Shown here one piece after another: positions 1 through 64,000 of a DNA stretch of 64,000 nt. A program made the translations under genes and the position numbers. Location of the stretch: assembly GCA_963752255.1 (NCBI GenBank), contig CAVVXT010000019.1, positions 320,001-384,000 on the forward strand, in the 5' to 3' direction. Source of the DNA: Nitrososphaeria archaeon. GTDB lineage: Archaea; Thermoproteota; Nitrososphaeria; JACIWG01. Every line of letters begins with the position of its first letter. Position 1 is the stretch's first letter. The notes under the pieces are model-generated. The model was not told the DNA's origin. It did no database searches and saw only the letters and a list, made by a program, of their open reading frames with translations.

Positions 1-170
1 TATTATCGTCTGGTTGACTAATATCTCTCTTGTTCACATCCGATTAGGAACAAGCATTTGTCATTGTGCTAACGGATATAGTCACTGTAATAGGATCGAT
101 TTTGATTTTAAGAAGGCGTAAGTCCAAGACATCATTAAATAAATGACTATTACCGCATGATAATTTTGGT

Positions 171-208
171 TAGGTATCTGCACTTAATTATGGTCAGAAA
201 CCGCCGGA
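171..208. repeat. Copy 1 of a ~40-bp palindromic direct repeat
   Basis: TAGGTATCTGCACTTAATTATGGTCAGAAACCGCCGGA aligns with 3918-3955. Confidence 0.7.
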
Positions 209-365
209 TTCGAACCCAGCCATCCTCCTAGTAATTTACCTTTAAATTAAGGCTGAAATCCCACCCCCAATAGAGTTATCCAATCAAAAGAAAATTTGGA
301 ACGGGCTCATCAAACTTACTAAGAGGTACTCAAAACTCTAGATTACTTATTATTTAATAGGTGCG

Positions 366-791
366 TTAATTGCAGCATTTGCCTTTTGGTATCAGGTTTC
401 CGTGAGGGCACTGTCTCGGATGTTTTAATAGCGTGCATAGGGCATCCATGAATTCTTCATCCATGTGGTGTTCCATTCCGCAGACATTTTCTTCGTTGAT
501 GTCCGTCTTCAGAGTTTCCTTCATCAATACTTCGATTAGTCTGTGGGCGCGAATAATTCTTCTGGCTATTTCTTTTCCCTTATCGGTAAGTTGAATTCCA
601 TGCCTGGGCTCGTATACGACAAAGCCTTCTTTTTCTAGCTTCTTCAGCATCTCAACGGCGCTGGGCGCAGATATTCCTAGGTGATTTGCCACCCACTTTA
701 TTCGTGCTACTCTCTCCCCGCTTTCCTCTGATACCCAAAGCGCCTCTAAATACTCCTCAACGCTCTCGGAGACGCCCACAGCTACCATCAC
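366..791 (-). CDS. DtxR/MntR-family metal-dependent transcriptional repressor
   Basis: SESVEEYLEAL N-terminus, HTH (ISAPSAVEMLKKL), RAHRLIE, ..GMEHH and CPHGNLIP motifs. Confidence 0.92.
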   Translation of the reverse strand: MMVAVGVSESVEEYLEALWVSEESGERVARIKWVANHLGISAPSAVEMLKKLEKEGFVVYEPRHGIQLTDKGKEIARRIIRAHRLIEVLMKETLKTDINEENVCGMEHHMDEEFMDALCTLLKHPRQCPHGNLIPKGKCCN

Positions 792-919
792 ATGTAGTGA
801 ATTAGACTGTCATGCGATATAAAGTTGAACGCACTTTGGCGAAGGGCCTCAATGACACATCGACTGTTCTTTGAAACTCAAGGCTTTTTGTCAGTTTATA
901 ATTCTCAGTATCTCTGACC

Positions 920-2097
920 TTAGATGAAGGAGGCAAAGCCGAGGAATCCGGTTATTACGATCAGAACTGACACTACCCAGAACACCGTCATACTCGTATT
1001 TGTTATGTTGATGTCCATTCATCACCTTGGCGTCTGAGACAAGCCTGCCAAGAAAGTACAGAGAAGGTATAATGATTATTGGGTATATGATCATCAAGTT
1101 TAGCATGAGCTGGATGTAGCCCGTCACTGTAGCTACAAGGATTACAGCTGGAAGGCTTTCGAGTGCGTAAACCGCGATGAATGAAGCCTTTGAGGTTTGG
1201 CCGGTTGCCTCTAGTACACCCCAGGCTGAGCCAAGGGATATGGTGATGAGGGCGAGAAAGCCGGCGAAGAGGAAGCTCATCCCCATGATTAGGGAAGCGT
1301 AGGGCCCGAAGAAAGGTAGCACTTTTGAAAGGTCTTCTACATTGATTAGGCTGCTTCCACCTGAAAGGCGTATCCCTACCACAACCACTATTATCATCAG
1401 AATCTCCGAGACTATAGCGCCGAGCAGGGTCTCTATGCGTTCATTCTTCAGTTCCTTCGCCTGCTTCTCCCTTCGGCAGTCTGCACCCGAGTGGAAGTAC
1501 AGCATCCAGGGCATTATGACAGCACCTACGTTTGCTGCAAGAAGATAATCGAAGGATGGGTTACCATACGGCTGGAGGGGAGAAAGACCTACGGAGAGAA
1601 GCTCTTTCATGTTGACGGGGAAGACGAGTGCTGAGGCCACTATTACGGCTACAACCAGGAAACTCAGCGGTATGAGTATTATCTCGGCCTGCCTGTATCG
1701 TCTACCAATTACAACCACCGTGTGAATCATGTACGCTCAATAGGATGCCCAGGAGAACCGGTATACCGAGGAGACTGAGGCCTATAGCTATCCCGGCATA
1801 CTCGGCTACATATTCGAGAAAGTCTGTCACACCCATAGGGATGGCGGCTACCATAGCCGCCCGTCTTCCATAGAATCTTCTTATGGCCGCACCTAGTCCA
1901 AGACACGAAGCAATTCCCAGGCTGCCTGCCGCATATTGAACGAGGAATAGAGGAAATATAAGTATCAGGAGGATGAATACCATTCTGTAACCGAAGCTGG
2001 CGCCAGCTTGAAGGGCTGCAATGATAGAGGGTATGTCTACGTCCGCTATCATTACAAGCCAAGCTGGCCCAAAATTCGTGAGCCAATCAACCACCAT
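920..2097 (-). CDS. NRAMP/MntH-family divalent metal transporter, two apparent frameshifts (~1720, ~990)
   Basis: FGPAWLVMIADVD (TM1), GAVIMPWMLYFHS (TM6). ORFs 1702-2097 and 891-1730 join; an alternative frame gives a final TM helix MTVFWVVSVLIVITGFLGFASFI* ending at 920. Confidence 0.85.
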
Positions 2098-2160
2098 AGA
2101 AGCACTATGGTTACGTATGTTAACAAAATTAAGTAGCTTTTTATGATCCGTAGTAATATG

Positions 2161-2199
2161 TTAGGCTAGCCTAATATATATGTATTTAGGTCTTCCTAA
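2161..2199. promoter_or_regulatory. Two DtxR/MntR operator boxes flanking an AT-rich TATA region upstream of the NRAMP gene
   Basis: Perfect palindrome TTAGGCTAGCCTAA (2161-2174) and TTAGGTCTTCCTAA (2186-2199), close to the DtxR consensus TTAGGTTAGCCTAA. Confidence 0.85.
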
Positions 2200-2447
2200 T
2201 ATCGCTAGCGATCGCAACAAATCCAGATCATCTGGGTGTTGCTAAATCTTGTAGGGATAAACATTATCTGTTAAGTTATTCGCCATGGAGGAAGTGGTTC
2301 TGTTAACTTAGTGTCTCGGATGGATTGGGAGTAGTCCATATTAACCAAAATAGGAAAACTCTGAACTTCATATGTTCTTAAGCACAATTCTTATCTTGGT
2401 TAAATGCAAAGTAACGAAAAGGCGAATGACATGGAGGTTTCAAAGAT

Positions 2448-2939
2448 ATGAGGAGGGTTGCGAAGAAAGGCAAATTCTCAGGTTTAATTCTTAATTTTGG
2501 TGGGGGAATATTTTATTTTTGCGGCTCGCTGGTATCTGTCTTGGATTTTATTATGATTCAGCAAGCAGCTTACCATTTTGACTTCGTAAGTCTCGTCGGC
2601 TTTGTTCTTCTCACAGCAGGATTAGGAACCCGCTTACAAGCTACAAGGACTCTGGGCAGATATTTTTCTCCTACCGTAAGAGTCTTGCCCAAACATAAGC
2701 TGATTAAACACGGCATTTACAGACATGTTAGACACCCTATCTATCTAGGTTCACTATTAGCCTTCTTTTCCATCCCATTGATCTTTCACAGCCTATACGG
2801 TCTCCTCGTTACGACTCTCGCAATCCCCTTTATCCTTTATAAAATACGAGCCGAGGAACAAATGCTCATAGAGAAATTCGGAGATGAATACAGAGATTAC
2901 ATTAAAAACAGTAAGAAACTTATTCCATATGTTTACTGA
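2448..2939 (+). CDS. Isoprenylcysteine carboxyl methyltransferase (ICMT/PEMT) family membrane protein
   Basis: LGRYFS, HKLIKHGIYRHVRHPIYLG, EEQMLIEKFGDEYRDY motifs. Confidence 0.88.
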   Translation: MRRVAKKGKFSGLILNFGGGIFYFCGSLVSVLDFIMIQQAAYHFDFVSLVGFVLLTAGLGTRLQATRTLGRYFSPTVRVLPKHKLIKHGIYRHVRHPIYLGSLLAFFSIPLIFHSLYGLLVTTLAIPFILYKIRAEEQMLIEKFGDEYRDYIKNSKKLIPYVY

Positions 2940-3326
2940 AGTGGCAAGTATGTTATAACAACCTCAAACAAGATGCACGTCATTTAGGCCAAAAGACTTA
3001 GCAGTATCTGTCCGACCACTCGCCGCAAGTATGAATCAATCACTACCCTTATACACCCACATGACCCATATGGTCTCAGCCAATCTTCCTTGCCATCATA
3101 TCCATCACGCTCGATTGAATAGCAGCTCTCGGGCGCACACACTCCCCTGACGGGTCCCAACAGCATCTTGCTCGTGGCGTAGTCGGCCACTCTTAGATCC
3201 TGACGCTAAGAGCACATCACCTATTACTTTGGCTTTATATCCTGAACACCGCCTCATGGACAAGAAAATGGATTAGCGGGTTCTCATAGAAAATAGAAAA
3301 TCTGAAAAGAAAAGGCTTAAATCAAG

Positions 3327-3557
3327 ATGAAGCTACCAGATTCGATTGTGGTCAGTGTAAGCATGGAAATATCCAAAAAAATAGAAGATGCTTATGTTCA
3401 GAGAATGCCTCGGGAACTTAAAGAAAAATTCGTTGCTCTCTCTGCTAATGAGCGAGCAGCGATCATTAAAGCTCTGTTGAGGTTCCATCAAGTAATGGAA
3501 GAAGAAACTTTTCAACTCGTATTAGGAATAGTTAACGCCCGTTTAGAGAAAAAATAG
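3327..3557 (+). CDS. Small hypothetical helical protein
   Basis: 76-aa ORF with ATG start and protein-like composition. Confidence 0.5.
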   Translation: MKLPDSIVVSVSMEISKKIEDAYVQRMPRELKEKFVALSANERAAIIKALLRFHQVMEEETFQLVLGIVNARLEKK

Positions 3558-3719
3558 TCTAAAGAGCCAACTCTGAACACCCCATACTAGCTATCAAATG
3601 ATTTGAAGCAGATAATAGTAGAGGATAGTAGAAGTATTTTAGCCGTCAAAGCCTCATCGATAAACTTGGCAGGAAAATCTACTTGAAATCCTGAAATGGC
3701 CAATAGTAATATCCCATAT

Positions 3720-3797
3720 CTAAACTTCATGGACAAAATTCTTAGTCAGATTATTCGGTGACACACCATGCATAACGAGCACAATGATAGTTTTCAT
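3720..3797 (-). pseudogene. Possible N-terminal remnant of a CbiX/SirB chelatase
   Basis: MKTIIVLVMHGVSPNN.. resembles the CbiX hydrophobic strand plus HG start, then stops after 25 aa. Confidence 0.35.
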
Positions 3798-3917
3798 GAT
3801 AGTTCCTTTTATTTTATCTCTTCTTATCGTTGATAAATTTATACAACGTTCCCATTAAGTGAGAGCTATTTGCCGGCAACATTTGTGGCCTTACCGCCGA
3901 TCGACCAGCTTGTATAA

Positions 3918-3955
3918 TAGGTATCTGCACCTAATTAGGTGCAGAAACCACCGGA
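3918..3955. repeat. Copy 2 of a ~40-bp palindromic direct repeat
   Basis: TAGGTATCTGCACCTAATTAGGTGCAGAAACCACCGGA contains the perfect 22-bp palindrome TCTGCACCTAATTAGGTGCAGA. Confidence 0.7.
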
Positions 3956-4258
3956 CCCGCTGCTTTTTAAAAATTCTAATAGCCTAGCTAAACCTTTTAT
4001 ATATAATATAGGAAAGAAAATGATTGCTTTATGTCAAACATAATCGCTCAGAAGCTTAAGGAGCAGACATCTTCGCTTGTGAGGACATTTTCTAAACGCT
4101 TAGCAACCATAAGAAGCCACCCCGAAACCAGTCTGTTGTGTAAACAGGTCTATAGGAACAAGGCTTTGACTAATGAGTTGTTGGTGATGATGAGCGTTTT
4201 GCGGTTGGAATCAATGCCTTTGACAGTATAATCAATTGAATAAAGATAGTTCTGGCGA

Positions 4259-4603
4259 TTATGCTATGTAAGATACCATGTTCTGAAATTTTGGACACCA
4301 ATTTGAGAATTCGCATACATCCTTAATTTTACAGAAAGTAAGGTCATTCGAATACATCGGATCATAGTTCTTACACTGGTTCCAGGGCTCTATCACTCCT
4401 ATTCCATAAAAACAGAGTCTCAGCCTAGACAACTTCTTTAAAGAGATAGGCTCCTTAGTATCCCAGTCCCATGCCGGAATCTTAGCTACTCTATCCTGGA
4501 ACCTTATTTCAATGAACTCGCCTGCCTTTAAAATCTTTCTTGCATCAATTGGCACCTTCACTGACGCCATAGCCCACTTTTTGCACGACCGACAACACTT
4601 CAA
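4259..4603 (-). CDS. Cys-rich hypothetical protein
   Basis: 114 aa, N-terminal CCxxC and several C-terminal Cys; no family recognised. Confidence 0.5.
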   Translation of the reverse strand: MKCCRSCKKWAMASVKVPIDARKILKAGEFIEIRFQDRVAKIPAWDWDTKEPISLKKLSRLRLCFYGIGVIEPWNQCKNYDPMYSNDLTFCKIKDVCEFSNWCPKFQNMVSYIA

Positions 4604-4787
4604 CTAGGATCACATCTAAACTCCTAATAGTGCGTAAGTCAAAGATAAAATCCTTTTTGCAGTTAATATAAATCCGTTCAGAATAGTTCAGACACTTGAA
4701 TAGAATATATTTGAATATGAAGAGTAACTCCTTTCCTAGAGCTGCCTCCGTTGCTTTTTAACTACATCATCTAAATATTCAGTGAGA

Positions 4788-6341
4788 CTAACTTTGGACA
4801 TCCGCATTCTTTCTTATCCTGCCCTTTTCGATATCCAAACCATTCCATGTTATTGAATAGCCCAGAGCTTCGATTACCTGGTACGGTTCTTTTATGTTGT
4901 ATGCTTCAACAGCCTCCAACGCGTCAGAGAGCTTTTCTATCCCCATTAGACTGGTTTCTATTTTTTTTAGAACTGAGTCGGATATGAAGTAGTCACCAAC
5001 CCTCTTGTAGCCTTCGAAGGTGAGGGTTGAAAGAACCTTCCTGGCAGATTCGACGCTAATCGAATTACCTTCTGCTATGTCTTCTATTCTTACTATATCA
5101 CCTGCCAATTTGATGTCCCTGAGCTTTGATGCATGAGACTCGTCTTCGATAACACCTTTCTCGCGCTCCTTTAAGTGTTCTATTATGGGCTTGATCGGCA
5201 CATCATCCTTATAGTATACGACTTGGATTTTTAGGTTGCGGAGTCTAGAGCACGCGTATTTTTCATTCACTGCGACGATTAAGTCAACATCTTTCACCGT
5301 TTCAAGCTTCGCGATCTTTCTTTCAAGATAGTCTGGGGTCCAGAATCCAACGATCTCCAGGTACACCTTCAAATTATATTTTGTAAACCTGAAGTCAGGT
5401 ATCAGCACATGTCTGCCCACAGGCAGAGGTTCAGGCTCTCTTTCGAGCACCCATCCGGAGCCGTAAGCATTGAAGGTTTTGGCAAATCGTTCTTCAACAC
5501 TGCTATCATATGTCTGTTTGGATGGCGTGTCTTCTGATCCAGTGCTCTCGATCAACCCCTTCATCTCATCGCTGGTAAGTCTGAATGTGTAGATTCTGTC
5601 TTTGTTCCTTCCCAGTACATCAGCTTTAATCCTCCAATAGCCCGATTCGATCACCGTTAGTAGAAGTTTCGCCAGCGCTGTTCCATACCTATCGGTCATT
5701 TTAAAGAGCGAAAGTGGGCCGTCAACAGTTACCTTATAACCATCGTCCTCACGTTCGACCGCATACATCAAGCCCAACCATTTAATAGATCTGAAGATGC
5801 TCTTCCAATTTCCTGAAACTGTGAACTCCAGCTTTAGGGACCTAAAGAGCATTGTCTGCGTTATGGAAAGGTTGTAAGACTTCAACAACGCATCCGGCGA
5901 CATTGGATTGAAGTCCTTTAGGATCAGTTCTTCTTCGACGTCGGAATATAGTATTTTTTCGAGAGCTTCAGCATGTATGCCGAGCTTCGCTGAGACGTCT
6001 TGGATAACTCTCCCCCTTTGCTCAACGTCTACTACTCTGACGTCGCTTGCCTTTTGGAACACCATCATCCTGGCTTCTGCGGGATCGATAGGCGCATCGG
6101 ATTTAAACACACTTCGTCTTTCGAGAAGAGCGAATAACCCTCTTACGAACCTGTAATCGAAGCCTTCATCTTCAAGGGTTCTCAGCTTTTCTATCATCTC
6201 TCCCTTCCTTCTACCCACATTGTTTCTAAAGACTTCAATGACCCGTCCAGCGAAGTTCAAGTCGCCTTCTTCCAAATGCGCGTATACGGGGTTAACCTGC
6301 CCATGTGAAACTCTAACCCTTAGAAGGTCATATGCAAGCGT
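4788..6341 (-). CDS. bax1: Bax1 (DUF790) endonuclease, XPB partner
   Basis: DGPLSLF..RYG, YDSSVEERF, IPDF..YLEIVGFWTPDYLERK. The frame stays open upstream of the track start (LAYDLLRVR..) to an ACG at 6341. Confidence 0.9.
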   Translation of the reverse strand, partial: TLAYDLLRVRVSHGQVNPVYAHLEEGDLNFAGRVIEVFRNNVGRRKGEMIEKLRTLEDEGFDYRFVRGLFALLERRSVFKSDAPIDPAEARMMVFQKASDVRVVDVEQRGRVIQDVSAKLGIHAEALEKILYSDVEEELILKDFNPMSPDALLKSYNLSITQTMLFRSLKLEFTVSGNWKSIFRSIKWLGLMYAVEREDDGYKVTVDGPLSLFKMTDRYGTALAKLLLTVIESGYWRIKADVLGRNKDRIYTFRLTSDEMKGLIESTGSEDTPSKQTYDSSVEERFAKTFNAYGSGWVLEREPEPLPVGRHVLIPDFRFTKYNLKVYLEIVGFWTPDYLERKIAKLETVKDVDLIVAVNEKYACSRLRNLKIQVVYYKDDVPIKPIIEHLKEREKGVIEDESHASKLRDIKLAGDIVRIEDIAEGNSISVESARKVLSTLTFEGYKRVGDYFISDSVLKKIETSLMGIEKLSDALEAVEAYNIKEPYQVIEALGYSITWNGLDIEKGRIRKNADVQS

Positions 6342-6360
6342 TATCCATCACCACTCAGTC

Positions 6361-7803
6361 TTAATCCTCCGTCACTCTGCTCCTTTTTCTTCTCCAACTG
6401 GTCCGTGTTTCTGATGTCCCACTCGACACGATTTCTATCAGTTTGGCTTTTTTCCCTTCCCTCTTCCTCAGCAGTCTACCTAACCTCTGTATGAATTCTC
6501 TCGCGCTACCTGTGCCGCTTACTATGACCCCAAGGGACGCTTCAGGTACATCGATTCCTTCATCCAACACCTTAGAGGTTACTACAGCCCTGAACCTTCC
6601 ATCTTTGAAACGCTTCAGTATTTCATGTCTCTCTTCTTTGTCAGACATATATGTTATGTAAGGGATAAGGAAACGCTTTGATATACGGTACACTAGGTCG
6701 TTATGTTGGGTGAAGATGAGTGTTCTGTCTTCAGGGTTTGATCTCAGTATATCCTCCAAGGCTTTGATCTTAGATTCTGAGTTGAGGGCTATGTCCTGCG
6801 CTCGATTTCTAGCGAGTAGCGCTTGTCTAGCGTTTCTGTCTCTGGCCGTAAGCATGATAAACTTCCTAAATTCATCAGGTGAAGTGATTCTTATCTTCCC
6901 ACTTGATAGGTAGTCAGAGAACACCCTCCAGTTCCTTTCATATTCTTCCTTCTCTTCATCTGTAAGTTCAACGCTTATTCTATGGAGAGTATACGTTGAG
7001 AGATACCTTCCTGTAAGATCTTCCGGCTTTCTCCTGTACACGACACCTCCCGTTAACCTCGGCAGCTCTTTATGGAGCATGTCCTCCCTTTCATAGGTCG
7101 CCGTCAAGCCCATCCTATAAGGGGCTGTGAACATTTCCGCGATCAACCTGTAACCTTCAGCCGCTAAATGGTGAACTTCATCAAAAATAATGAGGCTGAA
7201 CCTATTACCTATCTCACCCGCCTTAAGATATGCGGAGTCATAGGTAGAAACCGTTAGAGAGCCAATCCGAGTGTCTCCTCCTCCGTAAACTCCAATTTCG
7301 ATCCCGAACTCAGCTTCAAGCCTACTCCTCCACTGCTCCACCAGATCTAGAGTTGGCACGATAACTATTGACGACTGGTCAACGAGTTCGATGGCCTTGA
7401 TGGCTATAACAGTTTTTCCAGAACCCGTAGGAAGCACTATTATCCCCTTCCTCCCACCTTTATCCCAAGCTTCCAACGCATCTTCTTGATAATCCCTTAA
7501 GCGGATCCCGCTTCTCAAGTTCGGCGATGGCACAAGGTTTTGGACGGTGTCGCTAAAAGTCATCCTACTGTTCCTAAGATATTCGACTATTTCTTGATAA
7601 TATAGCGCTTGAGCTCTAAAAGCTCTAACTCTGTCGTCCCATATGGCGTACGGTATTCTAACATCCCCTCTGACCAGTATGCTACCTCTATCAAAGGATA
7701 AGACCACAGGCTGCAACGGTACACCACAAGCCATCCGGTGTTCGGCGTTTACGGCGTATAAAGTTATATAAACAATCGGAATGAATTCACTTAATCGGTA
7801 CAT
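6361..7803 (-). CDS. xpb: XPB-type SF2 DNA helicase (true start probably ~7733 or later)
   Basis: LRDYQ, LPTGSGKT, DEVHH, GLTAT, LDEGIDVP, QRLGRLLR; directly upstream of bax1. Confidence 0.92.
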   Translation of the reverse strand: MYRLSEFIPIVYITLYAVNAEHRMACGVPLQPVVLSFDRGSILVRGDVRIPYAIWDDRVRAFRAQALYYQEIVEYLRNSRMTFSDTVQNLVPSPNLRSGIRLRDYQEDALEAWDKGGRKGIIVLPTGSGKTVIAIKAIELVDQSSIVIVPTLDLVEQWRSRLEAEFGIEIGVYGGGDTRIGSLTVSTYDSAYLKAGEIGNRFSLIIFDEVHHLAAEGYRLIAEMFTAPYRMGLTATYEREDMLHKELPRLTGGVVYRRKPEDLTGRYLSTYTLHRISVELTDEEKEEYERNWRVFSDYLSSGKIRITSPDEFRKFIMLTARDRNARQALLARNRAQDIALNSESKIKALEDILRSNPEDRTLIFTQHNDLVYRISKRFLIPYITYMSDKEERHEILKRFKDGRFRAVVTSKVLDEGIDVPEASLGVIVSGTGSAREFIQRLGRLLRKREGKKAKLIEIVSSGTSETRTSWRRKRSRVTED

Positions 7804-7956
7804 TTATTACGCTATAACAAGTGAGAATGTCGAAAAAGATCTGGCAAAAAACAAGTTTGGAAAGATGCAGATTAAGGGGGGATGTTAACGGAATTGCACC
7901 AGCTTGTTCTAATAACGCATCTTTGGACAAGTGTATCACGAAGCATTTGCTGGACT

Positions 7957-8817
7957 TTAGGTTCTTTCATTTTTGTTAACTAGGTAGATGCCAAATAAAA
8001 CCACAGCAACGCCAATTATCTGATACAGGTTAACGGTTTCCTTAAGTAAAAACGCTCCTGCGATAAAGGCTATTACAGGAACCAGTAGACTCGACGAAGA
8101 TACAGTTGTTGCATCCTCATTCCTAAGAAGGTAGAACCATAGGAAGAATACTAATACGGTTGATAGGACTGTCACATAAACTAATGATAGCACATAAGTT
8201 GGCTCATATATGAAGCTGATTCCACCTGTGGCAAGTGCCAGAGGAAGCACTATGAAGGAGCCAACGGCGACCCCTGAGAAGCTGATCCAGTAAGGGTGAA
8301 CGGAGCTAGAAATCAGTTTATAATAAACTATCGACACAGCCCAGAGGAACGCTCCAATCAACAGAAAAAGAAAAGATTCTAAAGTTCCGCTTCCTAATTC
8401 CTCCAGATAGATGATTCCTATCCCAACAAATCCCAGCAGAACGCCTGTGATCTTCACTTTCGTAATCTCATTTTTAAGGAACATCGCGGATAAGACGAAG
8501 ACGAACAAAGGCTGTGTGTAGGTGACAATTGCACTTATGCCTGAACCCTCAACCTGCAGCGCCAACATCATGAAAACCATACTAAGTGACCAAGTAGCGG
8601 ATTGTAGTATAACATTTATGATGGTTCTAGAGTCTCTATGAAATCCGTTCTTGATAAAAAAAAGAAATGGAACCATCATAAAGGCTGAAAAGAAGAATCT
8701 CTGAAAAAGATAGTTCATTGAGCCCGTATAGCTGAGTCCTATCTTCATGTTAGCCCAGTTAAAACCCCATATTATTGCTACAACCAAAATAATGATCAAA
8801 TCCTTTCGATTCTTCAA
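7957..8817 (-). CDS. EamA/DMT-family transporter
   Basis: 10 TM helices, IWGFNW, TQPLFVFVLS..FLKNE, duplicated EamA halves. Confidence 0.9.
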   Translation of the reverse strand: MKNRKDLIIILVVAIIWGFNWANMKIGLSYTGSMNYLFQRFFFSAFMMVPFLFFIKNGFHRDSRTIINVILQSATWSLSMVFMMLALQVEGSGISAIVTYTQPLFVFVLSAMFLKNEITKVKITGVLLGFVGIGIIYLEELGSGTLESFLFLLIGAFLWAVSIVYYKLISSSVHPYWISFSGVAVGSFIVLPLALATGGISFIYEPTYVLSLVYVTVLSTVLVFFLWFYLLRNEDATTVSSSSLLVPVIAFIAGAFLLKETVNLYQIIGVAVVLFGIYLVNKNERT

Positions 8818-9135
8818 GCTCTTTTATCTCTGGATATGACCGACTGAAGAGCCCTTTATTAAAACGTATTCATAAAGATTTATGGGATTCCGTACATATA
8901 AACCGTGGACGTCAGGATCACAGATCTTGAACCATCCTATTCCAGACATCAATTTACACTTCTAATGTTCTAATCATTCTCGAATATGTTGTCTTGAGAT
9001 GAACGACTCTGGGACGAACTTATATATTACTGGTCTTTTGATTGGGATATGACAAATTTGTTAAGGCAACAAAGACTTATTGCGAATTATAAGGTTCGCT
9101 TTATTGAAACCTTAATTGCCCATGGTGAATCGTAA

Positions 9136-9882
9136 TTGGCTAAATTGGATATTCTTATGCAGGGTTCAGGTTTTAGGACGAACCTTGTGTCACTTGGAAT
9201 CTGCACTATCGCTCTTATACGCGATAGAGGCAACATACTCGTTGACACTGGGCACTTTGGAAACAGAAGGCAGATCATCGATGCTTTAAAACGTTTTAAT
9301 CTTGCACCCTCAGACATTGATAAAGTAATACTCACCCATTCACATTGGGACCATAGCTTAAACGTCGAACTCTTCAGAAACGCAACTGTCTTCATAAACT
9401 CTAAGGAATTGTCCTACGTACGTTCAGTCAAGGGGGACGACTGGGCCACTTCCATCAGCTTAGGGATGATTTTGGAAAAAATGAAGACTAAGGTATTGGA
9501 GGGCGACAAAGACCTTTCAAATGATGTTGGGGTAATAGAGTCTCCAGGTCACTCTCAAGGACACCAAGCAGTCTTTGTAAGAACTGATGGAGGAACCGTT
9601 CTCCTCACAGGAGATGCGATGCCTACTCTAAGGTCCTATATCAGGGGCCTACCGGACTACATCGCGACCACAGAAGATGAAGCTAGGCGAAGTATCGCTA
9701 AGCTGAAGGCTTTCAAACCCTCTACCTACTACCCTGGCCACGACAGGCCATTCCGCATTGACGGAGAGAAACCTGAATACCTTTCCCATTCAGAAATTAA
9801 GGTCATCTTCAGGAGGGAGACAGAAGAGAACTTCGGAATAGTCCTTGGAACAGAGGCTGCTGATAAGCCTGAGAAGGTTTAA
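9136..9882 (+). CDS. Metallo-beta-lactamase-fold hydrolase (AHL-lactonase-like)
   Basis: VDTG, THSHWDH, SPGHSQGH, TGDA, PGHD. Confidence 0.9.
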   Translation: MAKLDILMQGSGFRTNLVSLGICTIALIRDRGNILVDTGHFGNRRQIIDALKRFNLAPSDIDKVILTHSHWDHSLNVELFRNATVFINSKELSYVRSVKGDDWATSISLGMILEKMKTKVLEGDKDLSNDVGVIESPGHSQGHQAVFVRTDGGTVLLTGDAMPTLRSYIRGLPDYIATTEDEARRSIAKLKAFKPSTYYPGHDRPFRIDGEKPEYLSHSEIKVIFRRETEENFGIVLGTEAADKPEKV

Positions 9883-49855: not shown

Positions 49856-52800
49856 CTATGATGCCTTTGGATGGTCGATTCGGACCCCGCCATGCTTACC
49901 AGCTATCCGCCTCGGTAACACAACCCTCCAAAGGATCCCGATTGCCGCTAAGATAATAACTATCAAAATGGACGCATAAATCCAGTTTATCGAGAAGTTT
50001 GCCTGCAGGCTCTCAGCCGAGTTCACTACTACACTGACTTCGGTCTGGCTTGAAGATATTGCCCCAGACCAGCCGTCAAACTTGAACAGGAAAAGCACAG
50101 GGCTGGCTGTAAGTTGGACTGTCGACCCCAAGGGCACGAACAGCGTCTTGTTACTCGCGCTCTCCACTTTGCCAGCCAGCGAGGCTGAGCTGTAGGAAAC
50201 GCTTCCGAAATTGGAAGAAACAACTGAGAGACCAGGATAGAACGTAGCGCTTTCTACGATTGGATCCTGGACCGTAATGGTATACGATTTGCTCGTCCCT
50301 CCATACGAGCCGATTCCTGAAGCGTTCCAAAACTCGAACTGCCATCCCCCGTTTGGAGTAGCAGAAATCTGAACCTGCTCACTGGAATTATACCAATCCG
50401 TCAGAGGAGACACGGAACCGCCCTGCTCGGTGTTGGAAAGAATTTGAACGTGGTACTGGTGGTAGTAGAGAGGAGATAAGACGATAGCGGAGCTCACTGA
50501 ACCTTTAGTTGCCTGCGCAAGGACCGACCATCTCTCGCTCGAAGAAGCATGAGCAACGCTGCTAAAACTAAACGTGCTACCCGAGTCTGCCCAAGCCGTC
50601 CCCTGCGTGACACCAAGTATTGAAGTCGACGGCGATCCAAGCGAAGAGAAGTTCAACTCCAAGGAACCAGGGTTGCCCCCGCCGGATACGCTGTAGCTAT
50701 AAACAATGGTGTACTGGTGATAGTAGACTGGGGTCATTGAAACAGCTGCGTTCACGCTTCCGGAGCTGGAGTTGCTCGTGTACCAACGCTCAGAGGAGCC
50801 AGATCCCTGAAGAGGATTCGGTACGCTGAATGACGTGCCTGCGTCAAGCCAATTGGGACTGAGGGTCGCGTTTATCGGAGAAGCCGTTGACACTCCGAAA
50901 GCCGTCCCCGACAACAACGGAGAACTAGGATTCCCACCACCCATGATGACATATCCTACGGAAATGTCGAATTGGTGGTAGTATTGGAAGGTCGCGGTGT
51001 TGGGTCCCGAGACAGCCCCAGCACCGGTCTGAGACGTAATCCACCTTTCAGATGAAGTAGAGCTGGAGAGTGGATTTGTAACCGACCAAGATGAGCCATA
51101 ATCAAACCAGTAGGCTGTAGGCATGCTCCTTATGGTGGGCGAAAACGCCGTACCGCTCTGCAAGCCTGTGAATAGCGGGGCGGTCGGTGAACCACCTCCA
51201 GACACGGAGTATGCCAGAGTCCAAGCCACCTGTAAGTAATATGGGACAACTACCATAGATCCCGAAACCGTTCCCGAGGTCCCGTTAGTGGTCGTCCACC
51301 TTGTGTTTGAATTTGATCCTGCTAGCAAGCCTGCGAACGAATAGGATGAATTCGCGTCCGCCCAGTCAGTGAAATTCGCCACCCCCTGCGTCTGTGACCC
51401 GAACCTGGTGTAGGCGACGGTCGGGGCCGTATAGCCGGGCTGACCGGAGTTCATAATGTTGAAGCTAAACAGAACGTAATACTGATTATAGTATGTGAAA
51501 AGAAGTGTCTGGGCGGCAGAAACGTTTCCTGAGGTGGCGTCCTTAGAATACCATCTTTGCGTGCTACTCGACCCCTGTAAGAGCTTTGATACAGACCAGG
51601 GCTGTCCGACGTCGGACCAATAATCTGTGGGTGAGCCGGAGAGGCTAACAGCAGCCGTTGATCCGAACTGCGTCAGGGTAAGGCTGGGTGCGGTAGGGCC
51701 TCCTCCCCCCACTGTCGTATAGCCGGAAGTTAATCTGTATTGGTGGTAGTATGTCACAGAGAACGTTCCACTAGAGCCGACCACGCCAGTCGCGGGCTTA
51801 GTGGCCCACCGTTCGTTTCCGGACGATCCGGGCAACGGATTCTGAAAGGAATACATTGAGCCGGCGTCCGCGTAGGCCAAGGAAAAGTACATAATGGATA
51901 CAGACGACCCGAACTCGCTGACGTTCACGCTTGGCTGTGAGTAACCGCTGCCACCGTTTGCGACAGCGTAGAGGAAGGATACGCGAAACTGGTGGAAATA
52001 TACGAAGCTCAACGTCGTGACGTTCTTGGGAGTAGTGCCGCTGGTCTGATTTTGTGTTTCCCAAATCTCGTTCGAAGTTGAGCCCTGCAACACGCCGTTC
52101 ACACTCCACGGAGACCCGATGTCCATGTAGCAGGTGGTAGAATTAGTGGAAAGCTGGATGATGTTTTGAATCCCGCCGGAATAGTAGATGAAGGATGGGT
52201 GGAGAATACCCACTTCCCCCACCTTGAACCGAATAACTCACGTTAACTGTGGCAGGACTATATCCTGTGATGAACTGATACGCGTCAGAAGCCTCCGTGG
52301 CGCCGTGCGATGATAAGTACTGCAACGTGTTCGGATCCGTATAGGCGACGGGACTATTCGTGGAAGCCTGGAACAACGTTTGGCTAGTGCTCGGCACCGA
52401 TTCATCCATCCACATCCAGGCGGAGGATTTTGCCGAGGTGTTGTCCCAATATGTCACAGCTGACTCTTCTCCGTAATAGGCGGAGATGTGCCACCAGTCC
52501 GTCATAAGTCCAGTGAAGAAACCGTTATCGTTTTTTGGCGATGAAGCGAGGCCCACGAAATAAGAAGAACCTTCCTGGCTGAACGTCTGTATGGCCCTTG
52601 CCCTCGTGTTGTAGTCATATGCTAGCATCACGACGTTGCCGCCAGAAAAGTACAGGGTAAGGAAGACTGTATCCCCCTTGTTGACGGTCCCTGAGAAGGA
52701 TTGCAGTCCACTTCCGCTTGCTGGGTCTATTGAATTGCCACTTGGGTTAAAAACTTCGTAATTCATGCTGAAGCCCGATGTGTAGCCGCCAGCCGAATTA

Positions 52801-53321
52801 GGCCAATGCCAGGAAAGGCCCACCTGATACCAATAACCCGTGTCAGAAAGACCATTCAACAAGTAGGCCGGTCCATACCCGTTGCTGTCCGCCTGAGCCA
52901 CAGCGGTGACGTTGTAGGCCATGCTTGTAAAGCTCTGTGTGAAAGTCAATGCCAGCTGCTCGTCGTAAGTCGCAAGTGGAAGATTCTCGACAGGGTAATC
53001 TTGGTTGTTTGCAGGTGACAGCTCCAATCCAGCCAGTCTACGGCCCTGGGATTGCTCCGCCGGGGAATCGGAGCTGATAGATGCGGGTATAGTTGGACGA
53101 CACAGCGAGCAAGAGTAAGAGCCATCTGATCCCAGCGCAGTTGGAATGTTAGCTCCACCTGAGGGGGGATTCATGACAGAGGGAGTTGCTCCGAAAGCAC
53201 TCGCATGAGGTGCTGTCCAACCAAGAGCGACAAGCATTGCGATTAACAGAACGTAGAAACATAATCCCTTGGTAATCCGTCGAATAGTGCAACCATAAAT
53301 CTTAATCAAAGCCGGTTTCAA
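49856..53321 (-). CDS. Large surface protein: signal peptide, thermopsin-like N-terminal domain, seven ~85-aa repeats, two InlB-B-like repeats, C-terminal TM; frameshift ~52190
   Basis: YLLNGL..YWYQ; repeated YYHQY..GGG.P..FG..W.D.G..ERW units; ATPNGGWQFEFW and FKFDGWSG; TM followed by RR. Confidence 0.8.
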
Positions 53322-59762: not shown

Positions 59763-60710
59763 TTAGAGTTTCGGGTAAACTTTGCACAGGGATTCAAGAA
59801 CCGTAGAGGTTGTGATAAGCCTCTTGGGATCTTGATAAAGCCTACCTGCGTCCTTACAGGTCCAGGGCTCAAAGCAGTCGTTTTTGGTGAGCCGTATGAT
59901 CGGCACACTTTCCCAGCTGCCGTCTGTTCTCTGCTCCTGAACAAGCTGATTGACGAGCTCGAAGACATTAGTATCGCCCAATTCTGCAAATGTGTAAAGG
60001 ATGCATGAAATCAGCAGGGCTGATTCAAAGGCATTCTTGGGACTGACTCGAAGCAAGCTCTCTTTAGTTTTAGCTTTGTCGAATCGAGCTCCGATCGCGT
60101 CTAGAAGTGACAGACTGGCTTCGGTGCCGTAGAGGAACGAATCCCACCAGAAGGAGTTCCATAGCCCATCGACTGTTTTCTGCTTTAACACATATTTCAT
60201 GCCCTTTTTTATGGAAGGATTCTTGCGAACGTACTTTGTCAGAAGCGCCTGAAGGGCGATAGGGGTCACGTCGGGATGGGGGGCCCTCCAAGAATCAGTT
60301 CTGCTGTTGGCGAGATATGTTGAAAAGCCTCCATCACCGCACTGGAACTTCATCAGGTGTTTATAGCTCCTCACCGGTACTTCCACCCCTTCAGAAACCA
60401 GGAACAGTAATGCGTATGCCGTAGAGTCTGCATCCGATCCAGCCTCCATGTTGTACCCCCAGCCTCCATCTGGGTATTCGTTTCTTAGAAGCCACTTGGA
60501 GGCTGAAAGCGTCGAATCCGCAGTCCTCTTTCTCAGTCTTCCTGGAACGTGCCTTAACTTGTACCCCACGTACGCTGTTACCCATGCGTCCGACCATCCG
60601 GGCGGCAGTTGGCAGTCTGCCCAGCTTCCATCATCGGATATATAGGAGAGAATATACTCTAAGGAACTGATGATAGATCCTTTTATGCACTCCTTCCTTT
60701 TCGCGCTCAA
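59763..60710 (-). CDS. Single-domain class II terpene cyclase / prenyltransferase-squalene oxidase repeat protein
   Basis: QW-like repeats (DGSW, DGGWG, QCGDGGF, QKTVDGLW, QRTDGSW) and the DxDD-variant DADSTA. Confidence 0.82.
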   Translation of the reverse strand: MSAKRKECIKGSIISSLEYILSYISDDGSWADCQLPPGWSDAWVTAYVGYKLRHVPGRLRKRTADSTLSASKWLLRNEYPDGGWGYNMEAGSDADSTAYALLFLVSEGVEVPVRSYKHLMKFQCGDGGFSTYLANSRTDSWRAPHPDVTPIALQALLTKYVRKNPSIKKGMKYVLKQKTVDGLWNSFWWDSFLYGTEASLSLLDAIGARFDKAKTKESLLRVSPKNAFESALLISCILYTFAELGDTNVFELVNQLVQEQRTDGSWESVPIIRLTKNDCFEPWTCKDAGRLYQDPKRLITTSTVLESLCKVYPKL

Positions 60711-61775
60711 AGTCTTTCCCTTGATGGGTTCAAACTCGGCTTTAGGTACATGCTCGTATAAGTCTCTTTTTGCCTAGAGCCAAAGCCCACAAAGCGGTGC
60801 AGGTCGACGTTAATTCCGTTAAGGTGACCTTCAGACATCACTTCAAGTGTGTTCAGATAGGTGGCCGGGTCCACGCCTAAGAAACCGAGCCATTTCGAGA
60901 CCTTTTCCTTCGCCTCCACATCGCTTGCGAAGATGCAGTGCCCGCAGATCTCGAACTTGAAATCAAGCCCTGTTCCTGCTCCGAATCCGAAGGAACAGAC
61001 AACCGATCTGGTAGGATACCGGCGCTCCTCGCCCAAAAGATTTTCAGTGAACCGTCTGAATAGTCTGTTGTACTCCCGGTCTGCGATAGACCTTATCAGA
61101 CCTTCGTAGTATGTCAGCGGGTTCCCGAAGGCACTTACGTAGACTCTTCCACCTAGCTGGCCGCCTTTACCGAGCGTCAGTGACATTCCAAGTGGCTTCA
61201 TGTCCGTGATGAGGACTTTCTCTATTTCGTGCCATCGCTCAGTCCCATTAAAATGTAAGACAAATGCATCGAATCTTGGCCACATTCTGTCTTCACGCCC
61301 CCATTTTCCGTTGATGTAGACACTTAACTTCGGCTCTGCCTTCGGTGAAAAACCCGCCCCTATCCAGAACGCACCCGCAGGGTCCGCAAGCAGATCGGGA
61401 TCGCTTGAGGGAGCCAGCTTATCGATGAGGTCCTTAGTTTCTGACACAACCTTTCCTGAGGAGTAAATGGGAGCGAGAACGCCTATGCGCTCCCTGCTCA
61501 GCGTCAACCGTTCGGCTCCGGATGAACCCGGAACTCCTGCCTCACTCAGGAACTGTAAAGACGGCCTATCGTGCCCCAAGGGTAATGAAAACTGGAAGGG
61601 TGTTCCATCTTCGTTTTATTCTAGAAAACGTGGGTGGTCTTCTGCCAAGAGGCATCGCCAGCGATTCCCTGCATATGGTCTCATAGGTTCTCATGATCTG
61701 GGAGCCTGAATGTTCAAGGCCGAACTGAGGGATCAGCTTTGTCAGTAATTCGCTTACGTAATCGTATAGAGACAG
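60707..61775 (-). CDS. ABBA-fold aromatic prenyltransferase, DMATS-like; probable CTG start and +1 error at T4 61614-61617
   Basis: Removing one base gives SRINEDGTPFQFS; also FWIGAGF..KLSVY, GRVYV and terminal SMYLKP; GGTGA RBS before the CTG at 61775. Confidence 0.68.
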
Positions 61776-61814
61776 GCCTAAATCACCCCTATGATATACG
61801 TGATGATGACTTTC

Positions 61815-62561
61815 TTAGCTCTTTTTTGACAGATTCTGCGCCTGCTCTCTCTGTGGAAGCGTCACCGTTGCTCTCCTGACTGGCTTATCCGAACGGCTTG
61901 GCCCATCGTCTGGTTTCAACAGCTCGATCTTGATGTGCGAAGGAGCTTTGAAGTGGAAAAGCATCCCCTGCCCCGGCTGCAATTCGATCCTGTTTGGTTC
62001 GAAGGTCTCACGTAAACATTCAACCTTTATAGGACTAGGGGGACGATAAGCCGTCCTCCCGATCTTCGGATAGGCTACAACAATATCCCCTTTGGTCTTC
62101 GTAAGCAGGTTGTTGACGGAGTACGCTCCGGGACGTATGATTATCGCTGAGAAGATGTCCCTTTCATCAAGCTTGAGGCTGTTGAATAGGTTTTTCCTAG
62201 GGTCCTCCTCCACCTTTTCGACGCTTACGTGATAACCGCCGCTTCCGCCTGAAACGTGGAAGACAACGTAGCCCCTCGGATTTACGACGAAATGGATCCT
62301 GGAATCTTCGTGGTCTGGGCAGCACTTGGACGGCTCAGCCATCACCCCACCCAACTTAGCCAGGTCTACGTTAGCTTGCGCTACTGGGCTGTTCTTGTCA
62401 ACCGTTATGTAGAAGGCTCCAACGATTTCTGTCCCCCTATAAAGCACCCCCCGGTATTCGCCGGGTTCTGGAAAGCTGTGTATTATCGCTCCTAATATGG
62501 TGAGCGAACCGCTGTCCAACCCAATCTGCGAATAAATGTTCTGATCGATTGGTATTGTCAT
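61815..62561 (-). CDS. Hypothetical protein with two cupredoxin-like beta-sandwich motifs
   Basis: LDSGSL..HSFPEPGEY and FNSLKL..IFSAIIIRPGAY; no complete type-1 Cu ligand set seen. Confidence 0.6.
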   Translation of the reverse strand: MTIPIDQNIYSQIGLDSGSLTILGAIIHSFPEPGEYRGVLYRGTEIVGAFYITVDKNSPVAQANVDLAKLGGVMAEPSKCCPDHEDSRIHFVVNPRGYVVFHVSGGSGGYHVSVEKVEEDPRKNLFNSLKLDERDIFSAIIIRPGAYSVNNLLTKTKGDIVVAYPKIGRTAYRPPSPIKVECLRETFEPNRIELQPGQGMLFHFKAPSHIKIELLKPDDGPSRSDKPVRRATVTLPQREQAQNLSKKS

Positions 62562-62563
62562 GT

Positions 62564-63472
62564 CTATGTACCCACCTCCGCCTGCACGGTCATCTCCTTC
62601 GAATTGATCTTCGCTGTAAGGTTTCGGATAGGGATCTTGACCGGGATGAGAACGCCGCTCTTAGGGAGGATCGGATAGGGGTCTTCGAACTCGTAGATTG
62701 GGTACTTGCTCGCAAAATAGTCAGAAATAGCTGTTTCGATCAACCCGAGAAGGTCAAATAAATTGCCCAGCAAGTTCGAAACCCAGTCACTGATATCCCC
62801 TACGATCCCTAGAGCACTTGTTATGAGGTCGATTACCGGTCCTATTATCGCCCAGATCAGGTCCTTCATAAAGCCTGGCAAGAACCAGAGCTCATCGTCT
62901 ATCGCGTTCTTTACAGCCTGCTCAAGAATGTTTCCCACCGTTTCCGGAATATCGATCGGATCAGCGTGGACCCAGATTGGGTTGATGAAAATCTTCCACT
63001 TATTTGGGTGACCACCGTATTCCGCATCAAGATCTGATTCGCTTGCAACTCTGGCTGGGTCTATATAGTATTTCGGAGCTAGATTTGCCTTCACATCAGA
63101 AATCTTCGATATGAGCCCGCTGAGGTCTAAATCGGCGCAAACGGGACCGCCTATGCAGATCTTGGGCAGAGATACGAGGCAGCCGTTCCACGGATCAGGT
63201 ATGATACACCAGCCTCCGACACAGATTCCTGGCAGGTTAAAGCAGACCTGAGCCTTCAAGATGTCGAAAACGACGTCGACGTTCTTTACCTCCAGCGTGT
63301 TGTCGTCTTTCAGGGTCAGGCTGCCATCGTCCAAGTGGAACTTGACGGAGTAGCTGGCTGAGAACGGGCCGAAGTTTTTGCTGTCCGACTTGGACAGACT
63401 GAAGTTATCAATTAATGTATCGAAAAGCTTGCCAAACGCTTTACCTGAAGCCGCGAGCGTTATGTGGTTCAT
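62564..63472 (-). CDS. Hypothetical protein with Cys/Trp-rich hairpin and long amphipathic helix
   Basis: CFNLPGICVGGWCIIPDPWNGCLVSLPKICIGGPVC; translationally coupled (ATGA) to the upstream gene. Confidence 0.8.
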   Translation of the reverse strand: MNHITLAASGKAFGKLFDTLIDNFSLSKSDSKNFGPFSASYSVKFHLDDGSLTLKDDNTLEVKNVDVVFDILKAQVCFNLPGICVGGWCIIPDPWNGCLVSLPKICIGGPVCADLDLSGLISKISDVKANLAPKYYIDPARVASESDLDAEYGGHPNKWKIFINPIWVHADPIDIPETVGNILEQAVKNAIDDELWFLPGFMKDLIWAIIGPVIDLITSALGIVGDISDWVSNLLGNLFDLLGLIETAISDYFASKYPIYEFEDPYPILPKSGVLIPVKIPIRNLTAKINSKEMTVQAEVGT

Positions 63473-64000
63473 GGTCCCACCCCCATACTGATGAACGCTT
63501 TGAGCTGATCATCCTCCACCGCAGGGTTGTTTGGAACAGGCGGGTTAGGTGTGGGCGAAAGCGTGATCGTGGCTATGTTAAAGAGCGGAAAGCTAAAGAA
63601 CATCTTCTCAAATGGGATGGTCAGCTTCTGCCTAAGTACCACATTTACCGTAGTCTTAAGGTAGCATACCAAGTTTTGCTCAGTCCGTCCGGCTTGATGT
63701 CGACGATATCTAGTCTATCGACCTTGCCCAACAGGCACTCTTTGCCGAGTATCACAGTCCGTTCGAAATGGCCTACTACAAATATGTCCAGACAGAAGCA
63801 GTTCAGCTTCCCCTTTACGTGTACAGGTGGCACTGTCGTCTGCTTTTCCCCAGATTGTGGTGGCACGACCGGGATTGTGTCAACATCCTTTTCTGATGGG
63901 CAGCCAATAGCGCCGCATATCTTGAACTGCATCGCGAAGTGTTGTTTCTGAAGAGGCGGGTTAAGCTCCGAAGGAAGAGATATGACGTTTCCAGGGTGAA
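63469..64000 (-). CDS. Hypothetical protein, 5' end outside the window, frameshift ~63680
   Basis: Frame open to the window edge (HPGNVISLPSELNPPL..); joins LDIVDIKPDGL to NLVCYLKTT..NNPAVEDDQLKAFI. Confidence 0.75.

Follow-up and report, generated by a model that had tools for sequence, protein, structure and literature searches.

The stretch of DNA analysed here, which we call the window, comprises 64,000 nucleotides from the genome of a Nitrososphaeria archaeon (assembly GCA_963752255.1; 2.1 Mb in 19 contigs, guanine-plus-cytosine (GC) content 0.39-0.44), and corresponds to positions 320001-384000 of the 608,634-base contig CAVVXT010000019.1. Towards its end, on the minus strand, lies a compact block of five genes that we name A, B, C, D and E in their order of reading. 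It couples a predicted aromatic prenyltransferase (D) and a predicted terpene cyclase (E) to three conserved proteins, one of them with a predicted lipid-carrier fold, and recurs in the same order in bacteria. By reading the contig past the window, we could place the block at window positions 59763-64286, that is, up to 286 bases beyond the window edge. Its genes and the two positions that disturb them in the present assembly are the following:

A: 64286-63645 plus the open reading frame (ORF) 63672-63469, minus strand; 213 and 67 residues in the present assembly, with the start outside the window.
B: 62564-63472, minus strand; 302 residues, predicted TULIP-like fold.
C: 61815-62561, minus strand; 248 residues, conserved, family not assigned.
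D: 60707-61774, minus strand; about 355 residues in two frames, a 290-residue ORF (60707-61579) and an N-terminal piece reaching 61774.
E: 59763-60710, minus strand; 315 residues, TTG start.
Homopolymer run, AAAA on the coding strand: 61614-61617, minus strand; one base in excess, which disrupts the frame of D.
Missing-base position: 63681/63682, minus strand; disrupts the frame of A.

The original prediction, made from the letters of the window alone, had described a coupled, co-oriented operon that is richer in GC than the DNA to its left and runs off the window edge, and all of this stands. The stop codon of A overlaps the start of B in an ATGA and that of D overlaps the start of E in a TTGA, while only 2 nucleotides separate B from C and about 40 separate C from D. 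The first gene reaches position 64286 in the contig. GC content is 0.50 in the block versus 0.43 in its flanks and 0.33-0.42 in the DNA to its left, and third-codon GC is 0.56-0.63 in B to E versus 0.27-0.35 in three genes to the left. One of the genes originally counted, the ORF 63469-63672, is the 3' part of A and not a separate gene. About 35 nucleotides upstream of the A start we read by eye the sequence GAAAAGTTTAAATAAG, which resembles an archaeal B recognition element followed by a TATA element (the TATA-like part being TTTAAATA), and a T-rich stretch, also noted by eye, lies downstream of the E stop. When the flanks of the block were searched for repeats or a tRNA gene as an integration site, we recovered only short repeats at chance level and no tRNA gene. 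PADLOC defence models gave no match to A-E, and there was no RNA run among the public runs listed for the block.

Two of the five genes are interrupted in the present assembly. The region 60707-61775, previously taken as one open frame, is not one, the first 53 or so codons of D lying in another frame because of the extra base in the run 61614-61617. D homologues are about 366 residues long and their first 60 residues match this upstream frame. Likewise, A and the 67-residue ORF form a single frame of 267-279 residues (about 272) in all 32 other loci. The closest relative of the block, found in another Nitrososphaeria genome (locus L002), is 91% identical over 4671 aligned bases with four gap columns, and two of the four break the frames of the window: a base is missing at 63681/63682, and a base is in excess at 61614-61617, where the relative reads AAA in place of AAAA. 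At the protein level B is 96% and C 89% identical between the two. We checked the frames in contigs of four public soil or peat metagenome runs from three studies, mostly at least 99% like the window; contig depth was low (3-7), and the source sample itself may be among the runs. The contigs of all four runs omit one base at 61614 and add one after 63681, leaving both frames intact, and none of the four supports the window's version of either indel. With the base near 63681 restored, A reads ...DGLEQNLVCYLKTT..., in agreement with the family consensus. Most likely, then, both frameshifts are private to the present assembly and the archaeal population carries an intact, usable cassette. Given the intact frames in the public contigs of all four runs, we treat A and D as intact in the population.

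The start of D is peculiar. Neither archaeal copy, in the window or in L002, offers an ATG, GTG or TTG start, none being present before residue 40. In both (window 61772-61790; L002 10001-10021) the sequence AGGGGTGAT is followed by six bases and then by CTG, at the place where P0003, a full-length homologue of D, has its methionine. Judging from this arrangement, translation of D probably starts at the CTG 61774-61772, behind a strong site that resembles a ribosome-binding site.

The block recurs as a cassette. A D-profile scan of one genome per species gave 40 loci, which were then searched with the window proteins. In 30 of the 40 all five genes are present in the order A-B-C-D-E (E is cut by a contig end in L009, and C, D or B is split in L026, L029 and L032), five more are cut by contig ends and compatible with the full order (L003, L011, L017, L023 and L038), one is devoid of E (L014), three hold D only (L015, L021 and L025, all in Acidobacteriota), and a distant one holds D and E only (L040). 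The gene order is far beyond chance, and the expectation that the upstream genes would accompany the enzymes in other genomes is borne out. The three D-only loci look like deletions, because they keep the flanking gene families of their full-cassette relatives. Some bacterial copies look damaged as well: D of L029 (10190-11036) and C of L026 (9167-9873) are each in two pieces, and in a complete Actinoplanes genome (L032, 8630-9348) B has an internal TGA and is about 60 residues short.

Archaeal hosts belong to the Nitrososphaeria and Conexivisphaerales; bacterial hosts include many Acidobacteriota, Nitrosomonas, Nitrosospira, Chloroflexota, Solirubrobacterales, Actinoplanes, Paracoccus, Janthinobacterium and Verrucomicrobiota, and some are in culture (Paracoccus endophyticus, Paracoccus luteus and Actinoplanes sp.). 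A metagenome scan added one further full cassette (L050). The block is rare wherever we looked: of 401 genomes sampled from the window's phylum three have B, and so do three of 401, one of them with a weak partial match, from the phylum to which G401 (the genome with the Acidobacteriaceae locus L013) belongs. Clustering ORFs of at least 90 residues in the flanks revealed no other shared gene family (no synthase, tailoring enzyme or transporter) beyond the local synteny of close relatives. A recurrent 544-residue ORF near the cassette was rejected as an antisense artefact of high-GC DNA lying over the gene Z. In four loci, with or without D-E, a conserved protein of about 760-780 residues adjoins A-B-C, upstream of A in L028 (5096-7369), L035 (5224-7458) and L036 (5161-7452) and downstream of C in L076 (1327-3651). 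It is absent from the window, is 54-58% identical between Paracoccus and Acidobacteriota, and has no Pfam or PDB match; in some hosts it could form a sixth component of the system.

The nature of D is indicated by structure prediction. Neither piece of D matches any Pfam or NCBIfam family at E up to 1, Trp_DMAT (PF11991) and the Orf2 type included. Sub-threshold Trp_DMAT matches appear in 2 of 12 fused relatives of D (E 1e-4, 21-22 bits versus a cut-off of 25). The D family comprises 65 clusters of proteins of about 366 residues, and we modelled the homologue P0003, which is 60% identical to the window's D, from a 60-sequence alignment. The model has a predicted local distance difference test (pLDDT) score of 93.8 and consists of five alpha-alpha-beta-beta units that form a ten-stranded prenyltransferase (PT) barrel. 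Its best Foldseek match is 6-DMATS (6zrx; E 2.4e-17, template-modelling (TM) score 0.81), followed by SCO7467 (6zs0), CymD, TleC/MpnD, IptA and PriB at E about 1e-17 and TM about 0.8, and all of the top 50 rows are ABBA prenyltransferases. The modelled homologue thus shows D to have, by prediction, the ABBA aromatic prenyltransferase fold, with the bacterial tryptophan DMATS enzymes as its nearest relatives, in keeping with the barrel anticipated for 60707-61775.

Within the 60 sequences of the family, residues R95, Y159, Y218, Y349 and E281 are invariant. The motif by which D was first noticed is only partly as announced: SRI-NEDGTPFQFS is present, but Gln replaces the Glu of S.i..DgtP.EfS, and this Gln of DGTPFQ is invariant in the 60 sequences. 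In DMATS enzymes such as FgaPT2, basic and tyrosine residues line the diphosphate site, and a Glu at the position of this Gln holds the indole NH. A second peculiarity is found at residues 279-286 of P0003, K-F-E-L-C-G-H-C, which span the eighth strand and the turn that follows; E281 and C283 are invariant, and H285 and C286 are conserved in at least 90%. The fused forms of D and E described below retain it as K-x-D-x-C-x-H-C. This E-x-C-x-H-C motif is not known from DMATS enzymes; it may be a metal site or a catalytic feature.

E is recognisable from sequence. It matches Pfam SQHop_cyclase_C at 37.9 bits (cut-off 26.1), and in the PDB it finds 8paj (4e-19) and MstE (3e-14) over its whole length, values that become 2e-48 for 8paj, 2e-37 for 6ij1 and 1e-33 for MstE with the family profile. 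Profile alignments against MstE, 8pak and 6ij1 cover residues 7-312 of 315, and E consists of a single alpha/alpha-toroid (beta) domain. The DxDD motif that had been ascribed to the cyclase is not there, the motif reading D-A-D-S: D93-A94-D95 is invariant in 34 of 34 family members, followed by S-T-A, and the D-A-D-S-T of E aligns with the DADST of 8paj and 6ij1 and with the DADTT of MstE. MstE uses DxD in place of DxDD, and its clade includes several archaeal sequences, so that archaeal cyclases of this type were already known as sequences (PMC12414744). The predicted beta-domain-only nature of the cyclase is upheld by these alignments, which show E to be a putative MstE-type one-domain class II cyclase with D93-x-D95 as its acid motif. 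A literature search for the PDB code 8PAJ returned no paper, and the substrates of 8paj and 8pak were not found.

The two enzymes also exist as one. A D-profile search of 1.84 billion representative proteins retrieved 806 relatives with E values of 0.001 or below, 128 of them at 1e-30 or below; among 150 listed, many are 620-743 residues long with D at the N-terminus, and in 6 of 12 fused relatives scanned SQHop_cyclase_C follows behind D. One of them, P0123, is 31% identical to D and 42% identical to the window's E. The existence of such fused homologues shows that D and E correspond, as far as homology can tell, to a split form of fused prenyltransferase-cyclase proteins. A characterised protein of this build, described in a review, is NctPC, an ABBA prenyltransferase fused to an MstE-like cyclase; it geranylgeranylates a tryptophan in a ribosomal peptide, the attached chain being cyclised afterwards (PMC13290415). 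The sole short ORF in our cassette, 63469-63672, is the tail of A, and we found no other conserved small gene in the cassette or in its flanks, where ORFs of at least 90 residues were clustered. A distant 635-residue fused prenyltransferase-cyclase without A-B-C (L053, 6540-9770) is preceded on the same strand by a 213-residue protein and a 218-residue Gly/Asn-rich repeat protein with the sequence CHWNGDD, a possible further acceptor protein.

Of the five proteins B is the best conserved: over 32 sequences, archaeal and bacterial, its mean column identity is 76%. In its model (pLDDT 76.5) a strongly curved antiparallel sheet wraps around a long helix, and a segment of five helices is inserted at residues 179-256 or so. 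The top Foldseek match is BPI (1ewf; E 2.8e-4, probability 0.97, TM only 0.24), and VIA-align, an aligner independent of Foldseek, gives Z values of 10.7 for YceB, 10.6 for BPI, 9.0 for CETP, 8.6 for P47 and 8.4 for OrfX2, where the typical chance level is 7-8. The model thereby shows B to have a predicted TULIP lipid-binding fold, and the fold relatives listed include carriers of isoprenoids or sterol esters (juvenile-hormone-binding protein, beta-carotene-binding protein and CETP). Sequence searches see none of this: with 32 B members and E up to 10, Pfam yields no family, neither LBP_BPI_CETP nor the OrfX-like PF06597, and only scattered chance matches; comparison with PDB sequences yields nothing below E 0.6, and NCBIfam gives no match. 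A language-model lead of 0.81 goes to a cluster in which 18% of members carry PF06597. By eye, a signal peptide is not obvious at the N-terminus.

The 32 B proteins linked to D-E all share the motif C77, C89-x-x-P-D-P-W95-N-G-C98, C112, in a segment where model confidence around W95 is lower (64-69). W95 and most of these cysteines are absent from three B proteins of genomes without D-E. These three are only 31-44% identical to the window's B and differ from it at 25 of 37 listed conserved positions, which makes the contrast a weak one, and the link between the W95 motif and the presence of D-E no more than a lead.

Less can be said about the other two proteins. A is rich in cysteines, seven of them invariant, with 63% mean column identity. 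It has no NCBIfam match, and Pfam searches of all A members at E up to 10 gave scattered chance matches only. C, with 55% mean column identity, has no Pfam or NCBIfam match, and neither A nor C finds anything in the PDB by sequence below E 0.6. A language-model lead, at only 0.77, connects C with Copper-bind clusters, a weak hint that C may be a cupredoxin-like beta sandwich. In one of the 35 loci compared, and only there, C and D form one open frame of 609 residues (L008, 9230-11056, Thermoflexales). Predicting a complex of D with C gave a score of 0.00, which is uninformative either way. We also considered read-through of the stop codon from C into D and rejected it, as the stop of C shares the reading frame of D at 10 of the 35 loci, the level expected by chance.

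A, B and C are found without the enzymes too. Another archaeal family (G064) has a 655-residue A-B fusion followed by C, a relative of it (G048) has B and C adjoining, and in both genomes, which are 95-96% complete, no D or E was found; in an acidobacterium (G609), A-B-C is followed by a 780-residue protein without an assigned family, and D is absent. Because these three genomes have A-B-C genes without D-E, A-B-C is, as judged from gene content, a module of its own to which D-E would have been added in one subgroup. At the loci of G064 (L045, G064:C2:4001-20000, 20-9562) and G048 (L046, G048:C197, 3308-7545), the A-B-C genes adjoin genes of defence type, a type IIG restriction-methylase and an HKD+Snf2 helicase (PADLOC C3a139, 5e-66), with a HerA-like ATPase in the second genome. 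NurA and HerA genes lie upstream in L002, and the bacterial loci show no such pattern of defence neighbours.

Several lines of evidence bear on how the cassette came to be in these archaea. Homology between the window genome and L002 is limited to 59733-64401, the flanks there being unrelated, although elsewhere the L002 locus has matches of 94-97% on other contigs of the window genome. Most bacterial hosts have no GC contrast between block and flanks. A quick tree of B, mostly bacterial, places the archaeal rows, three in number, in a well-supported group of six together with Verrucomicrobiota and Terriglobia; being rooted at the midpoint only, it proves no direction of transfer. The GC contrast in the window, together with the different genomic site in L002, points to a recent import of the cassette into these archaea, as a compositionally foreign element and not as an archaeal invention. 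A second GC-rich island lies on the minus strand at 49856-53321 (GC 0.52-0.56, third-codon GC 0.54-0.60); it holds two large overlapping ORFs of 788 and 392 residues, the first with a divergent InlB B-repeat domain, and their 80-nucleotide overlap could be a further frameshift of the present assembly.

What could the five proteins do together? The two possibilities initially put forward, a meroterpenoid pathway and a lipidation of the co-encoded proteins, are still the leading ones, and the present evidence does not separate them. Our preference, which we hold tentatively and to which we would grant somewhat less than an even chance, is that D and E make a cyclised prenyl-indole lipid that is held non-covalently by A-B-C. 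The cassette would be self-contained and horizontally acquired. D would attach a C15-C20 prenyl chain to an acceptor of the indole type, free tryptophan or a related cell metabolite being the simplest choice, with a prenyl donor that should come from the host's diphosphate pool, since the cassette has no chain-length synthase. E would then protonate the terminal double bond and close the chain into rings without use of a diphosphate. The resulting, very hydrophobic cyclic meroterpenoid would be bound non-covalently by the A-B pair, its lobes joined as in BPI, with C as a third subunit, and the protein-lipid complex would be the functional product of the cassette, for instance a lipid carrier or a particle that acts on membranes. 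We infer the whole of the D-E chemistry, from acceptor and chain length to binding. The lipid-carrier reading is favoured because TULIP folds are non-covalent lipid binders, because A-B-C exists without the enzymes and because the structures nearest to D act on free tryptophan. The occurrence of A-B-C without D-E also fits a binding module that might take other lipids. The natural A-B fusion and the carriers of isoprenoids and sterol esters among the fold relatives of B count in its favour too.

Several observations weigh against this proposal. The family of D has a Gln at the position of the indole-binding Glu of DMATS enzymes. The model of B is of middling quality, with its pLDDT of 76.5, and the Foldseek TM values are low (0.24-0.30). 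A profile comparison of A with B detects no kinship between the two proposed lobes (probability 0.8%). It would also be unusual for enzymes and stoichiometric binders to be encoded in one translationally coupled operon. According to the review cited above, the tryptophan on which NctPC acts belongs to a ribosomal peptide and is no free metabolite (PMC13290415). Finally, the Trp and four-Cys motif of B is invariant only in the company of D-E, and would fit a modification site equally well.

This last point leads to the strongest alternative, protein lipidation, which we regard as nearly as likely. Here a tryptophan in one of the proteins encoded alongside, most plausibly Trp95 of B in the turn P-D-P-W-N-G-C, would receive a farnesyl or geranylgeranyl group from D, and E would cyclise the attached chain, leaving the protein with a polycyclic anchor that resembles a sterol; the role of D and E would be to mature A-B-C. 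Such a scheme would suit D-E as a split form of prenyltransferase-cyclase fusions, a build also seen in NctPC, which geranylgeranylates a peptide tryptophan before cyclising the chain (PMC13290415). It would also suit a cassette with no acceptor or tailoring gene, the translational coupling of D-E with A-B-C and the one natural C-D fusion. B itself offers further arguments: its mean column identity is unusually high for a TULIP protein, the W95/Cys motif is kept in all 32 D-E-linked B proteins and not in the three others, and the reduced confidence around W95 is what an exposed hairpin might show. Yet the divergence of the D-E-less B proteins (31-44% identity, 25 of 37 listed positions changed) weakens the W95 contrast, TULIP folds bind lipids without covalent links, the structures nearest to D act on free tryptophan or small indoles, and NctPC may lie outside the D family. 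Moreover, in work attributed to Hubrich et al. in 2024 the substrates of the fused enzymes are reportedly leader-bearing, proteusin-type precursor peptides and not folded proteins, and the cassette has no short precursor gene. The more specific version, in which D-E decorate a folded protein, with Trp95 of B as prime site, with a polycyclic terpene and thereby arm A-B-C as a membrane-active or lipid-transfer complex, we consider slightly less likely still. If true, prokaryotes would have an equivalent of sterol-type protein lipidation, and the A-B-C complex would have spread between Nitrososphaeria and bacteria of the soil.

Other explanations fare much worse. It is very improbable that A-B-C and D-E are functionally unrelated modules that travel on one mobile block. 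Each half can be found alone, A-B-C without D-E in three genomes and D-E or fused forms without A-B-C in L040 and L053, but the constant gene order and the overlaps of stop and start codons at 30 loci in bacteria and archaea, the C-D fusion of L008, the B motif that tracks the presence of D-E and the three D-only loci that look like deletions of a full cassette all speak for a joint function. Least credible of all is that the frameshifts are real and that the archaeal copy is what remains, in decay and no longer functional, of a cassette transferred from bacteria: this would agree with the interrupted A and D of the assembly, the foreign composition and the decay of related cassettes (the three D-only loci of Acidobacteriota and the broken B of Actinoplanes), but not with intact frames in contigs of all four runs from three studies, only four gap columns in 4671 bases at 91% identity to L002, B and C proteins 96% and 89% identical to those of L002, and an archaeal-type TATA-like element, TTTAAATA, some 35 nucleotides before the A start.

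Our literature search found no description of the block, most subscription journals as well as the primary NctPC paper and its supplements, which may list such neighbourhoods, lying outside it; within that reach, no earlier characterisation of the cluster turned up that would refute the original prediction. The same search found no description of a TULIP protein linked to terpenoid enzymes. For small meroterpenoids, prenylation followed by cyclisation of the chain is a known route. According to the review, the same order of events was reported in 2024 for ribosomal peptides as well (PMC13290415). Here such a prenyltransferase/cyclase pair is locked to three conserved proteins, one of which has a predicted lipid-carrier fold, in place of a peptide or a pathway to a small molecule. 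Both outcomes considered above, a protein carrier dedicated to a cyclic terpenoid or a folded protein anchored by a polycyclic terpene, would be new. With its length of only 4.5 kb, no requirement for a further conserved gene and its presence in cultured bacteria, the block lends itself to direct testing. It is also a clear case of the same cassette in bacteria and Nitrososphaeria archaea, and it defines two or three protein families without a curated model.

Several parts of the cassette can be set against known systems. With the bacterial tryptophan dimethylallyltransferases, D shares the predicted PT barrel over its full length at TM about 0.8 and a DG[TS]P before the first strand, but it is only 15-19% identical to them, lacks a Pfam Trp_DMAT match, and differs by the invariant Gln of DGTPFQ and by the E-x-C-x-H-C motif. 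E is homologous over its full length to MstE (merosterolic acid synthase, 6sbb), 8paj, 8pak and 6ij1, with a single beta domain and an aligned D-A-D-[ST]-T, and 8paj and 8pak are closer to it than MstE. The substrate of MstE is a small aromatic meroterpenoid made by a prenyltransferase of a different kind (UbiA type). D-E as a pair has in common with NctPC, compared by description only, the association of an ABBA prenyltransferase with an MstE-like cyclase. In NctPC both domains lie in one polypeptide, whereas here D and E are encoded separately, their genes overlapping in a TTGA, and NctPC acts on a ribosomal peptide, whereas the cassette has no precursor peptide gene and its partners are three proteins of 250-300 residues, one of them TULIP-like. 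Among TULIP proteins (BPI/LBP/CETP, YceB, clostridial P47 and OrfX2, and insect JHBP and Takeout), B would share the fold of a helix in a curved sheet, and would differ from them by its five-helix insert, its Cys-rich hairpin and the lack of a sequence-family match. BPI and P47 are two-lobed proteins, and the A-B fusion of G064 is reminiscent of such a build.

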